A DNA stretch of 56,240 nt from an uncultured Candidatus Saccharibacteria bacterium. GTDB taxonomy: Bacteria > Patescibacteriota > Minisyncoccia > Phycocordibacterales > GWA1-40-21. Shown piece after piece: positions 53,418-56,240 of the stretch (position 1 is its first letter; the number at the start of each line of letters is the position of its first letter). The stretch is from NCBI GenBank assembly GCA_964567825.1, contig CAZMNX010000004.1:1-56240 (forward strand). The letters run 5' to 3'. Made by a program: the position numbers and the translations under genes. Under the pieces are notes generated by a model. That model saw nothing but the letters and a program-made list of their open reading frames with translations. It was not told the origin of the DNA and made no database searches.

Positions 53418-54068
53418 TTACAACCCGAGAGCCTGAATGGCGAGCGTCGCCACGCCCTCTCTGGTTTGACTGCCGTCGATACGGTAGACTGGCACCCCCA
53501 TGGTGTTCAACCGCTGAACGGCCGGAATCTCCACCGAATCGTACAGTTCCTGCCGCCGGGCCATCGCCCCATCGGTGTCGTCGATGCGATTTTCACGCTT
53601 CGCCCGTTCCCGCATCCGATCGAGCCGCGTCTGTGCTGGCGTATCGACAAAAAGGCAGACGAGTTCGTACGGATAAGGAAAGTCCCGCATCAGCCGTGTG
53701 AATTCCTCGGCCTGCACCGGCATCCGAATGACTCCGTCGACGATGATGTCGGAAATGCCGTGCACCAATTTCTGGCATTCGCCGCCGAAAACCTCTCGGC
53801 AAACTGCCTGTTCGGCGTGATTGCCACTCTTGATCTGCTCAGCAACCATCGCTCCAACCACCGGATCATCGCGCTTCGCCAGAAGGCCGGCACTCATCGA
53901 GATCACTTGCGGTTCCAGGGGCCGATCCGGAACATGACCAGCGGCCAATTCCCGCTGGAGATACGCCCCAGACAAGTGGCCCTTAAGCCGGCTCACGACA
54001 TTGCCCTTGCCCGAGCAAGGACCACCGGCAATGATGATCACCTTAAAGACTCTTGGTTCCAAGTTCAA
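53418..54068 (-). CDS. Adenylate/nucleoside monophosphate kinase family protein (GC-rich)
   Basis: GGPCSGKG, IIVDG..R..QA, R.DD. Confidence 0.85.
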   Translation of the reverse strand: MNLEPRVFKVIIIAGGPCSGKGNVVSRLKGHLSGAYLQRELAAGHVPDRPLEPQVISMSAGLLAKRDDPVVGAMVAEQIKSGNHAEQAVCREVFGGECQKLVHGISDIIVDGVIRMPVQAEEFTRLMRDFPYPYELVCLFVDTPAQTRLDRMRERAKRENRIDDTDGAMARRQELYDSVEIPAVQRLNTMGVPVYRIDGSQTREGVATLAIQALGL

Positions 54069-54191: not shown

Positions 54192-54498
54192 TGGCGCGGG
54201 CGATGGGTGCTGACCCCACGGCCTCTCCCGTGCACTAATTCACTATTTTCATAGTGGCATGGACTATATCTTTATCCTTCCCTTTCGGGTGAGGATACTC
54301 CGGTATCTAGTCTCTACGGCGCTCCTTCGCTTCGCTCAGGACCTACGGTCCAGGCTACTTTAAAGGTTCCCACGGTGTTCGCATATCTGCCTCATCGGCT
54401 GACTTAGCCTTCACCGTTATCCCAGAGAGTTTCAATCCGCATCTCGGCGGAAAGCTGCACGTCTACAGGGGAGTGCTCTACCGTTGAGCTACGCCCGC
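54192..54498 (-). tRNA. tRNA-Asp(GTC), intron-containing (exons 54498-54465 and 54232-54192)
   Basis: GCGGGCG/CGCCCGC-G-CCA; spliced arm CTCCC-CTGT^CAC-GGGAG; atypical T-loop GTCAGCA. Confidence 0.92.
54233..54464 (-). ncRNA. Group I intron (232 nt, no ORF) at tRNA position 35/36
   Basis: P1 CUGU/GCAG with U.G at the 5' splice site, P10 GUG/CAC, P7 elements GTAGAGACTA and AAGATATAGTCC, terminal omega-G. Confidence 0.92.
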
Positions 54499-55166
54499 GT
54501 GGCGATAAATTTCTCAAAAACTATGGCCTTTCTTTTTAAGAATAAACCATCTCCTTTGAGATCTATACTATTATACATAAAATCATATAATTTCAAAGCA
54601 TCTTTGGTACTATAAGATAAACGACAATAATTCTTCTTATTTTTTATTATTGAGCCCCCAACTAATCCAATGATTCTTAATTTATCTTTTAAAGTAAGTA
54701 AAAAATCTAAAGAACAAGAGGTGAAAGCACAAAGAATCGCTAAATCTGGCCTTGCTCTGGTTTTGTGTGTGTACCCCATCCAAACATTACCGTCGCCATC
54801 AAAATAACCACGAACAAAATCAGCAAAATATTTCTTAGGGATATTTGGTACAAAAAGACTTTTAGTTTTATTCTCTCTGTAACCAAGCCTGTTTAAATCT
54901 TCGCACATTTCCTTGCTTCCTATCTGCAAACGATATAAATTTCTATCATTCCCCTTTCCAATTCTCTCACCTATTTTATGTTCTGCACCGACACACTGTC
55001 TAATCTTATAAATCAAATCTTTATCGGTAATCTGAATGCTCCAAAAACTAGCTCCGCGTTTATTTACAGTAATATACCCATCCGCTGCGAAAAATCCCAA
55101 GACATAAGCCATCTCTGGCGTCCATTTTTTAAAAAAATCTTTATTTACTTTCCTGTAAATTGGCAC
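54489..55166 (-). CDS. Free-standing double-motif LAGLIDADG homing endonuclease
   Basis: AYVLGFFAADG and FVRGYFDGDG motifs; stop codon within tRNA-Asp 5' exon. Confidence 0.9.
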   Translation of the reverse strand: MPIYRKVNKDFFKKWTPEMAYVLGFFAADGYITVNKRGASFWSIQITDKDLIYKIRQCVGAEHKIGERIGKGNDRNLYRLQIGSKEMCEDLNRLGYRENKTKSLFVPNIPKKYFADFVRGYFDGDGNVWMGYTHKTRARPDLAILCAFTSCSLDFLLTLKDKLRIIGLVGGSIIKNKKNYCRLSYSTKDALKLYDFMYNSIDLKGDGLFLKRKAIVFEKFIATRA

Positions 55167-55172
55167 CCATTC

Positions 55173-55193
55173 ATTATATCACGTGACAGGAGA
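55173..55193 (-). promoter_or_regulatory. Extended -10 promoter (TGATATAAT) of the endonuclease overlapped by a tRNA-Asp anticodon-site mimic
   Basis: TCTCCTGTCACGTGA vs spliced tRNA TCCCCTGTCACGGGA (13/15); TATAAT 6 nt before GTG. Confidence 0.7.
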
Positions 55194-55207
55194 TTATACT
55201 AGACAAT

Positions 55208-56167
55208 TCAAATGCCTGCTTTCTTATTCCTTAAAATAAAACCTCCGACACCACCAGCCCCAAAAGGCATAACGAGTATATCCTTATCTGTATTTGGCCC
55301 AATACCCTTTTTTCTATCGTCTAAGACTTTTTCTAAGGCAATAAAAGCCCCAGAACAGGTAGGATTACCGTGTTCTTGTGCAACTTTTTTATGTAGATGA
55401 ATACCATAAATACCCTCCATTGTCTCTAGAAGTTTAGCATTTGGTTGGTGAGGAACAACATCATAATCTTTTAAATCAATCTGAAGTTTTTCTGCTACAA
55501 GAGCCGGAACAGCTGAAGCGGATTTGCTTACTTCTCTTCCATCCATCTCCCAGAAACCGCCAACAATCCCCAAGGCTTCGTCCGCGATAGTCGAGTTTAC
55601 AGAAAAAACATCCGTTATTTCGACAATACCTTCTGAATCATTTGACCACAAGGAAACACTCACTGCATCAGAAAAAAGGGCTTCCACATTACGATCCTTA
55701 ACCATTTTAGTTGGCCAGTCTTGGGTTACATATAAAGCATAAGTTCCGACCGGTTGATTCTGCAACCAGGTATTCATCGAATCGATTCCAACCGCCGAAC
55801 CACCACAACCCCAACCTTCATCACATACTTTTGTCTCTTCAGAAAAACCCGCCCTATGAGCAAAAGTTACCGTTAACGATTCATCCCTCGTCTTGCCATC
55901 TATAGTTATTGGATTAGTTGTTCCAAATATAGCCTTAATTTGCGACTGATCAATATTTGTCTCTTTAAGTAAAAGACGAAAACACTCCAAAGAAGCCTCA
56001 GTTGGAGATTCAGGGCCATTATCCCAAGAGTGTCCCTTTTCTTTTCCAGTCTTTTCTAAGACCCACCCTTTCGGTAGTCCATATTTATCCTCAATTTCAG
56101 CATTATCAATAGTTCTCTCTCCAAAGGAGTGTTTCAAACCAACCAATGACACTGGTAGCCTTTCCAT
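55208..56167 (-). CDS. FabH-like / thiolase-fold condensing enzyme
   Basis: Cys-His-Asn motifs GCGG, PHQPN, HGNPT; FGAG. Confidence 0.8.
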   Translation of the reverse strand: MERLPVSLVGLKHSFGERTIDNAEIEDKYGLPKGWVLEKTGKEKGHSWDNGPESPTEASLECFRLLLKETNIDQSQIKAIFGTTNPITIDGKTRDESLTVTFAHRAGFSEETKVCDEGWGCGGSAVGIDSMNTWLQNQPVGTYALYVTQDWPTKMVKDRNVEALFSDAVSVSLWSNDSEGIVEITDVFSVNSTIADEALGIVGGFWEMDGREVSKSASAVPALVAEKLQIDLKDYDVVPHQPNAKLLETMEGIYGIHLHKKVAQEHGNPTCSGAFIALEKVLDDRKKGIGPNTDKDILVMPFGAGGVGGFILRNKKAGI

Positions 56168-56214: not shown

Positions 56215-56240
56215 TGGTGCCGATGAATGGAATTGAACCA
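56215..56240 (-). tRNA. 3' end of a tRNA truncated by the window edge (identity unknown)
   Basis: TGGTTCAATTCCATTCATCGGCACCA: T-arm + acceptor 3' strand + CCA. Confidence 0.85.

Follow-up and report, generated by a model that had tools for sequence, protein, structure and literature searches.

How do a homing-endonuclease gene and a group I intron come to occupy one transfer RNA (tRNA) gene, and why does the promoter of the nuclease gene resemble the very tRNA gene that follows it? One locus in the 56,240-nt stretch of DNA analyzed here (the window; contig C4 of a Patescibacteria genome of 710,096 bp in 20 contigs, with ~40% G+C and 92.65% completeness) raises this question: a free-standing LAGLIDADG gene lies directly upstream of a tRNA-Asp(GTC) gene that is split by an intron without an open reading frame (ORF). 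A preliminary description of the window had proposed a three-part module, in which the nuclease cuts intron-less tRNA-Asp genes, the intron confers immunity, and a degenerate copy of the target in the nuclease promoter acts as an autorepression operator. Comparison of the window with its relatives points to two separate selfish elements, the nuclease gene and the intron, that would share a single tRNA-Asp locus. In the reading we favor, whose chances we regard as about even, the nuclease targets intact tRNA-Asp genes, the intron or a change in the tRNA masks the target, and a relic in the nuclease promoter serves as an operator.

A nuclease gene tied to tRNA-Asp

The nuclease gene (54489..55166, − strand; called as an ORF with Pfam matches) begins with GTG and encodes 225 aa with two LAGLIDADG motifs. 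It lies upstream of the tRNA and outside the intron, as the preliminary description had stated, and it overlaps the tRNA-Asp gene by 10 nt, with its stop codon, TAG, forming tRNA bases 8–10. Pfam matched LAGLIDADG_3 to residues 18–87 (E = 9.2e-13, above its cut-off) and LAGLIDADG_1 to residues 120–196 (22.6 bits, 0.5 bit under the cut-off of 23.1). Motif 1 ends at D29 and motif 2 at D125, and both aspartates are invariant in 26 aligned relatives from many lineages, over which the mean column identity is 69%. In an AlphaFold2 model (predicted local distance difference test score 84.8; predicted template modeling [TM] score 0.83) and by Foldseek, the protein has the pseudo-symmetric double alpha-beta-beta-alpha-beta-beta-alpha fold, with I-Tsp061I, I-AniI, E-DreI, the bI3 maturase, and I-SmaMI as the best PDB folds (E = 7e-10 to 1e-8; TM 0.5–0.63). 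The gene is single-copy in the window genome, and its product would act as a monomeric two-domain enzyme encoded directly 5′ of tRNA-Asp(GTC) in Paceibacteria-type Patescibacteria.

Of 3365 candidates, 3161 were relatives of the nuclease protein at E ≤ 1e-3, and species-representative genomes gave at least 491 confirmed loci, of which the best 80, together with the window, make up the 81 loci compared below. The tRNA at the end of the ORF was tRNA-Asp(GTC) in 79 of the 81 loci, i.e., in all those with a readable tRNA, the tRNA-state counts leaving out L006, which is interrupted by a run of N, and L040, which meets a contig end. The ORF ended within the tRNA in 65 of 74 loci, 45 of which shared the 7-nt offset seen in the window. 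Motif 2 was intact in 78 of 80 family ORFs; decay among the 80 comprised internal stops in two, loss of a motif in one, and truncation in one. The tRNA-Asp gene was split by an intron at GU^C in 39/79 loci (35 by in silico splicing and ARAGORN and four by eye, namely L016, L047, L061, and L064) and intron-less in 40/79 (39 by ARAGORN and one, L015, by eye).

A wider view came from 401 genomes sampled evenly across the class, of which 82 had any nuclease match at E ≤ 1e-10. A full-length nuclease copy stood beside tRNA-Asp in ~22 of the 401 (21 read as Asp; in one, the ORF runs through its tRNA). The correlation between nuclease and intron that the preliminary description had expected was borne out in this sample, where BLAST found the tRNA-Asp intron in 4 of 22 nuclease-bearing genomes and in 3 of the remaining 379 (odds ratio 28, P = 2e-4). 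A fixed pairing of the two did not hold up. Specifically, a quick tree built from 77 nuclease proteins (38 with and 38 without the intron; L028, L057, and L070 were left out) required 21 changes of intron state, compared with a shuffled mean of 25.6 and with 17/500 shuffles as low; moreover, genome G235 carries an intron in tRNA-Asp and no trace of a nuclease. Of the proposed three-part module, the tie to tRNA-Asp stood (79/81), as did the intron in nearly all tRNAs that have the exact candidate site beside an element-bearing nuclease (24/25; see below), but the module is not obligate, given 40/79 intron-less loci.

Among 40 relatives of the window genome, we found nuclease with or without intron, neither, and intron only, all beside near-identical tRNA exons. 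Seven nuclease-less relatives retain 3′ stubs of the gene (38–45 codons in G404 and G413; shorter ones in G409, G411, G412, G405, and G403), so the absence of the nuclease in the family of the window reflects loss, and G227 combines an intron with a nuclease stub. The nuclease gene is mobile and selfish, with a patchy distribution marked by decay and loss, and nuclease and intron have been gained and lost independently, even within a genus.

Metagenome run X1 yielded a contig (depth 14.7) that skips 46 nt of the nuclease 3′ end (54510-54557) and has 8 other letters instead, and other X1 contigs diverge from the window sequence at 54498-54500 or 54583; stub-only and nuclease-less alleles thus coexist with the full allele. 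Separately, paralogous LAGLIDADG genes (31–40% identity) stop within tRNA-Cys(GCA) or immediately ahead of it, or adjoin tRNA-Leu genes (loci L104, L105, L108, L111-L114, L116, L118; L106, L107, L110, L115, L117, L119, L120, L142, L143). Free-standing LAGLIDADG genes linked to tRNAs may be a general feature of these bacteria.

Could the protein be domesticated, i.e., an intron maturase or a DNA-binding regulator of tRNA-Asp transcription rather than an active nuclease? The strong conservation (69% mean column identity over 26 relatives), the appearance of the bI3 maturase and of I-AniI, a bifunctional protein, among the top matches in sequence and fold, and a tRNA −10 box embedded in the nuclease gene (see below) are compatible with such a role. 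We nevertheless consider it improbable. The patchy occurrence (~22/401) and the stubs left after loss in one genus speak for the life cycle of a selfish gene and against that of a host factor. In addition, an intron in need of help is absent from half of the loci, both catalytic aspartates are retained, and members of the intron family do well in other tRNAs where the protein is absent.

The tRNA-Asp gene itself (54498-54192, −) was resolved by in silico splicing and ARAGORN into a 5′ exon (54465..54498, −; tRNA bases 1–35) and a 3′ exon that includes the encoded CCA (54192..54232, −), separated by a 232-nt insertion (54233..54464, −) between anticodon bases 35 and 36 (GU^C). Once 54464-54233 is removed in silico, a canonical 75-nt tRNA-Asp(GTC) results that ARAGORN accepts. 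The T-loop of this tRNA (54201-54219, −) is GTCAGCA, unlike the usual TTCGAAT-like loop, and the same loop recurs in several relatives (L023, L028, L034, L049).

The insertion bears out the ORF-less group I intron of the preliminary description. A local Rfam scan matched the full RF00028 (Intron_gpI) model (1–253) to 54240-54489 (−) with 38.2 bits (E = 3.7e-8), below the Rfam gathering score of 50 bits; the match contains the conserved core blocks, and the coding strand of the intron has no ORF ≥40 aa. The 5′ exon ends in CUGU, facing GCAG in the intron (the P1 guide), and the last intron base is G. The CUGU/GCAG pairing, the terminal G, and a canonical spliced tRNA-Asp recur in 34 other loci, where homologous introns occupy the same GU^C site, and all 35 introns align with a strongly conserved core. 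By these features, the insertion is a group I intron that is predicted to be self-splicing. In L032, L071, and L075 (also L125), the GU^C site is taken by group I introns of another, clearly distinct lineage; the DNA search for the tRNA-Asp intron in the class sample did not detect this lineage.

We found no second tRNA-Asp among the 35 tRNAs of the assembly (20 contigs, 92.65% complete). Neither ARAGORN, intron mode included, nor Rfam at the gathering score made a call at the tRNA-Asp locus. Annotation calls for caution here, since standard tRNA finders miss the split gene and such genomes then seem to lack tRNA-Asp. In three metatranscriptome runs, which come from two samples of one study, RNA contigs span 54196-54503 without differences, i.e., the unspliced tRNA plus intron, and do not extend over the nuclease ORF; the spliced joint was not seen in the RNA contigs of these three runs, which are uninformative for mature tRNA, splicing, or expression. 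In a freshwater DNA run, both exons are joined without the intron at a depth of 46.8, the nuclease-bearing contig there having a depth of 7.3. This joint shows that the community also contains intron-less alleles of these exons.

Related introns lie at position 35/36 in tRNA-Asn(GTT) (12 loci) and tRNA-Tyr(GTA) (3 loci) of other class genomes, assignments that are by-eye exon readings, as brute-force splicing left the anticodons ambiguous. In all these loci (L086, L088-L096, L098, L099, L101-L103), CUGU closes the 5′ exon and faces a GCAG guide. Transfer RNAs with GUN anticodons appear to be the home of this intron family. The window genome also has a second ORF-less group I intron, a 337-nt insertion near model position 2600 of the 23S rRNA gene (contig C16, ~60-400; locus L001), whose RF00028 score of 38.5 bits falls in the same class as that of the tRNA-Asp intron.

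A tRNA-Asp relic in the nuclease promoter

The nuclease gene is preceded by an extended −10 box, TG-n-TATAAT (55173..55181, −; read from the sequence), which a simple promoter scan missed (no good −35). The box ends 6 nt before the GTG, so the nuclease mRNA is probably leaderless or near-leaderless. Abutting this box is the tRNA-Asp look-alike, which comparison of loci delimits to 24 nt (55182..55205, −): TGTCTAG, 8 nt with a second TATAAT, and CCTGTCACG. The preliminary description had pointed to a 15-mer at 55193-55179 as a copy of the exon junction, and the window does contain one match to it, with two mismatches, at that place (− strand), overlapping the TG-n-TATAAT box. Alone, the match is only suggestive, with an expectation of 0.05 per window and 5 of 100 shuffles giving one.

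The comparison of loci goes well beyond this match. The consensus TGGTTAG-N8-CCTGTCACG was found upstream of the start codon in 64 of 81 loci, where an element was scored as present if it lay within 120 nt of the start, one-base variants of CTGTCA being allowed. In 35 loci, the element stands exactly 23 nt before the start codon and is followed by TG-n-TATAAT and 6 nt; it thereby spans about −16 to −39 of the inferred transcription start, between and over the promoter boxes. In a second promoter geometry, CTGTCA(C/T) immediately precedes the start codon, and the −10 box is the first TATAAT. Both geometries have the TAG-N9-CTGTCA spacing of tRNA-Asp. Information content is highest at TGGTTAG, at CCTGTCAC(G), and at TATAAT, and the 8 nt between the blocks are AT-rich with a second TATAAT. 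Both the blocks and their spacing follow the register that tRNA-Asp genes have between D-loop and anticodon loop (bases 17–39). Locus L122 even has, where the element would stand, 20 nt that copy part of a tRNA-Asp gene exactly (score 40 vs a shuffle maximum of 26), and this fragment is of a different type from the tRNA-Asp downstream of it. In six loci, the first 12 tRNA bases are repeated at the end of the ORF and are followed by a second degenerate cassette before the real tRNA.

The idea that the resemblance is due to chance, with neither history nor function behind it, has in its favor that the single match in the window is expected 0.05 times and arises in 5/100 shuffles. It is set against a fixed register in 64/81 loci and the 20-nt exact tRNA fragment of L122; we regard this explanation as having next to no probability, and a chance origin of the look-alike is refuted by that conservation, register, and fragment.

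Could the element be an ordinary promoter of tRNA-Asp? Exact matches to GGTTAG-N8-CCTGTCAC occurred in 89 of the 401 class genomes and, by reading, all but two places were the tRNA-Asp gene itself; because the pattern matches the gene itself in these genomes, the element is not an ordinary tRNA-Asp promoter. In keeping with this, nuclease-less genomes had no element upstream of tRNA-Asp in a pattern search of the 401-genome sample. Two genomes without a nuclease match do contain sequences that resemble the element with one mismatch (G092:C1:163348-163369 and G308:C2:190169-190190; L140, L141), and these may be orphan relics.

To judge from register, spacing, and the L122 fragment, the look-alike resembles tRNA-Asp by descent, as what is left of a tRNA-Asp gene's 5′ half. 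We conclude from the sequence comparison that the nuclease ORF sits between a truncated, mostly eroded 5′ copy of tRNA-Asp (bases about 1–39) and the full gene, and that two blocks of the relic were selectively kept while the remainder was overwritten. The exon-junction copy of the preliminary description is accordingly real, conserved, and specific to nuclease loci, but it belongs to a larger element that derives from the tRNA-Asp 5′ half and reaches to the D-loop. The element is a probable nuclease-binding site and operator.

A probable tRNA promoter lies inside the nuclease gene, where ATGTATAAT (54570..54578, −), a putative −10 box of tRNA-Asp 71 nt before the tRNA, falls on the codons Met-Tyr-Asn. 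In 60 of 60 loci, TATAAT encodes this Tyr-Asn near the C-terminus, whereas the codon usage of the same ORFs predicts 0.605, and the box lies 59–86 nt before the tRNA across loci, most commonly at 71 nt. It is retained in all 7 of 7 stub-only relatives (L147, L148, L152, L156-L158, L160). Since it is kept where the gene has been deleted to a stub, ATGTATAAT is probably the −10 box of tRNA-Asp, placed inside the nuclease gene. Such an embedded box would penalize clean deletion of the nuclease gene, a cost comparable to that described for T4 endonuclease genes (PMC2988022). As a speculation, the stop codon inside the tRNA would mean that RNase P processing of a read-through transcript gives a stop-less message.

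The proposed target, immunity, and place of the cut

The distribution of the intron bears on the putative target of the nuclease. Among element-bearing loci, the intron was present in 24 of 25 tRNAs with an exact site (GGTTAG-N8-CCTGTCAC after splicing) vs 9 of 34 others, i.e., those with a shorter or shifted D-loop, A22, T31, or T32 (Fisher P = 3.6e-8; site-state counts cover loci with a program-derived tRNA sequence). Among element-less loci, it was present in 1/4 exact-site and 1/11 other tRNAs. Branch-disjoint pairs differing in site state gave 12 with the intron only in the exact-site member, 0 with the reverse, and 8 tied (P = 0.0005; the pairing trees leave out L028, L057, L070, and loci without a program-derived tRNA sequence). 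Uninterrupted exact sites were found in 1 of 59 element-bearing nuclease loci compared with 86 of 379 nuclease-less class genomes (P = 2.9e-5). The 86 background sites come from a reading of 90 places in 89 genomes, from which the G341 element, an odd match in G083, a second place in G286, and the nuclease-bearing G160 were removed. Confined to the 26 intron-less element-bearing loci, 5.9 uninterrupted exact sites were expected and 1 was seen (P = 0.011). Of the four loci with an uninterrupted site among the 81, one (L048) lacks the second catalytic motif.

How might the parts work together? A leaderless extended −10 promoter, overlaid on the relic of the tRNA-Asp 5′ half, would drive the nuclease. 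The enzyme would recognize the stretch from D-loop to anticodon loop of intact tRNA-Asp genes, that is, GGTTAG-N8-CCTGTCAC and near variants. Because the break would fall between the nuclease gene and the intron site, repair from the donor would lead the recipient to copy both elements, with the nuclease gene ~30 nt from the break in one direction and the intron ~8 nt away in the opposite one. For the resident gene, escape from cutting would come either through the intron, which splits the right-hand block, or through a D-loop or anticodon loop that differs from the site. The relic, which keeps the outer blocks, might be bound without being cut and would throttle nuclease expression as the I-TevI operator does; it would presumably stay uncut because its AT-rich middle differs.

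Several observations weigh against this reading. The element is missing in 17/81 loci and, by eye, in ~15/20 orthologs of the class sample. The window is not the cleanest example: its tRNA-Asp is of the short D-loop type, the left block of its element shares just TAG with the tRNA of the locus (3/7), and 8 intron-bearing loci share this non-matching D-loop type. Some of the look-alike's right flank (TG-n) is accounted for by the extended −10 box. Nine tRNA-Cys-linked paralogs, a small sample, showed no convincing likeness to tRNA-Cys upstream in either register; what they share upstream is TTGCAGT and, directly before TATAAT, TTACCAC. The test for co-variation of the promoter motif with the neighboring tRNA, as proposed in the preliminary description, thus gave no clear mimic among the tRNA-Cys paralogs. 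The tRNA-Asp gene is intron-less in 40/79 nuclease loci, and since motif 2 is intact in 78/80 ORFs, many apparently active nucleases stand beside an unsplit tRNA. Uninterrupted exact sites occur together with intact motifs in L069 (element-bearing) and in L080, L082, and G160 (element-less). The statistics have their own limits: the 12:0 pair count rests on unsupported FastTree branches, a stricter tree test (independent pairs, supported branches) yields just 3 pairs, and significance is overstated in all target tests because relatives are not independent. Co-conversion of exons with the intron could by itself tie the intron to one tRNA type; it would not yield the depletion of uninterrupted sites. 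Finally, LAGLIDADG genes are usually located at their own cut site, and this gene would not be.

An alternative places the cut elsewhere, at a site destroyed by insertion of the nuclease gene (e.g., a stretch that starts just upstream of a nuclease-less tRNA-Asp and runs into its 5′ end). The intron would then be a passenger that travels by co-conversion because it lies ~35 nt from the nuclease gene, and the element would be a fossil promoter without binding. The nuclease gene always stands at the 5′ end of the tRNA, intron or not, the ~21 changes of intron state are near the shuffled mean of 25.6, and related introns live in tRNA-Asn and tRNA-Tyr without such a nuclease adjoining, as does the intron-bearing tRNA-Asp of G235 without a nuclease trace; descent of the element as a relic, and the six loci with the first 12 tRNA bases repeated and a second degenerate cassette, likewise suit this view. 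It leaves unexplained, however, why CCTGTCAC and TGGTTAG are near-invariant while the middle 8 nt are replaced, across proteins down to ~50% identity and two promoter geometries. Nor does it explain the depletion to 1 vs 5.9 expected uninterrupted sites in the 26 intron-less element-bearing loci (P = 0.011), and the region upstream of tRNA-Asp is unconserved in nuclease-less genomes and hence a poor homing target. We rate this alternative as a serious but rather unlikely one.

Extending the favored reading, in which the nuclease targets intact tRNA-Asp, we tentatively propose a three-way arrangement on an essential single-copy gene, more doubtful than that reading itself. The nuclease gene would have entered tRNA-Asp by duplication of its 5′ half, leaving the dead upstream half as a decoy that is not cleaved and as an operator over the leaderless nuclease promoter, and the live tRNA as a hostage, with the intron or drift masking the target. 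The tRNA would be held hostage through the −10 box in the Met-Tyr-Asn codons and the stop codon in tRNA bases 8–10, and the regenerated target would be masked by an independent ORF-less intron or by drift of the tRNA. If this holds, the paralogs at tRNA-Cys and tRNA-Leu would make the arrangement a general strategy of tRNA-gene homing in Patescibacteria.

Neighboring genes and known systems

Directly after tRNA-Asp, whose trailing hairpin was not called by a simple terminator scan, lies a gene (53418-54068, −) with ~60% G+C in a genome of 40% G+C. Its product has weak matches to P-loop kinases (AAA_17, AAA_33, adenylate kinase, zeta toxin), all under the cut-offs, and the gene looks like foreign DNA set beside tRNA-Asp. 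On the other side, a ketoacyl-ACP synthase (KAS) III-like ORF (55208-56167, −; weak ACP_syn_III_C match) lies between the nuclease promoter and a tRNA whose 3′ end (56215-56240, −) is cut off by the end of the window. The stop codon of this ORF is 3 nt from the promoter look-alike. In many relatives, a tRNA with a CAT anticodon stands directly upstream of the element (in the window, the tRNA is cut at the end).

Why does this locus matter? Collaborative homing and autorepression, known from few phage cases, appear to operate here on a chromosomal, single-copy tRNA gene. With at least 491 loci, a large uncultivated phylum offers hundreds of natural replicates, which show a full cycle of invasion, partnership with an intron, escape by tRNA change, stub decay, and loss. 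They form a natural data set for the co-evolution of homing nucleases, introns, and targets, and a source of compact (~225 aa) LAGLIDADG enzymes with a predictable target of 22–24 bp.

A related case is said to exist in bacteria, where an intron-encoded homing nuclease reportedly aims at the tRNA-fMet anticodon region, in a tRNA gene with a group I intron. That nuclease is encoded within the intron, whereas the tRNA-Asp nuclease is free-standing. Our literature search turned up no report of a LAGLIDADG gene adjoining tRNA-Asp in Patescibacteria; the intron part may already have been described in a 2025 preprint.

Collaborative, or trans, homing is described for phages, namely F-CphI with the psbA intron of cyanophage S-PM2 and mobE with I-TevIII of T4 (PMC3984707, PMC2790892, PMC6083498). 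As in those cases, the putative target of the nuclease would overlap the insertion site of the intron, so that one cut would move both and the intron would protect. In contrast to them, the present system resides on a Patescibacteria chromosome, its host gene encodes a tRNA, and its enzyme is of the LAGLIDADG family rather than HNH or Endo VII-like; it is also facultative (39/79 loci), and its target is deduced from comparison, whereas those of the phages were mapped.

Autorepression is described for I-TevI of the phage T4 td intron, whose operator resembles the homing site, overlaps the promoter of its own gene, and is without the requirements for cutting (PMC2988022). Here, too, a target-like site overlaps the nuclease's own promoter, in 64/81 loci. 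I-TevI, however, is a GIY-YIG enzyme that is encoded in an intron and binds and cuts with separate domains, and its binding and repression were measured, whereas the tRNA-Asp nuclease is a LAGLIDADG protein and a putative repressor; furthermore, the operator-like site here descends from the target gene itself. The same source describes SegB of T4, a free-standing nuclease gene in a tRNA gene cluster that targets the cluster, and host promoters embedded in T4 endonuclease genes, which favor retention of these genes (PMC2988022). The ATGTATAAT box would embody the same idea. SegB differs in being a phage GIY-YIG enzyme with an intergenic tRNA target and, in what that source reports, without overlap of ORF and tRNA or an intron partner.

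In bacteria of the candidate phyla radiation (CPR), LAGLIDADG genes are found inside rRNA introns and home into highly conserved RNA genes (PMC11270868). They share the phylum and the enzyme family with the tRNA-Asp nuclease, but they lie inside rRNA insertions, and the main text of that paper contains no mention of "tRNA," "free-standing," or "promoter." Compared with these known systems, the tRNA-Asp locus is set apart by the combination of a chromosomal location, a tRNA host gene, a free-standing LAGLIDADG gene, an operator-like fossil of the target, and a facultative intron.

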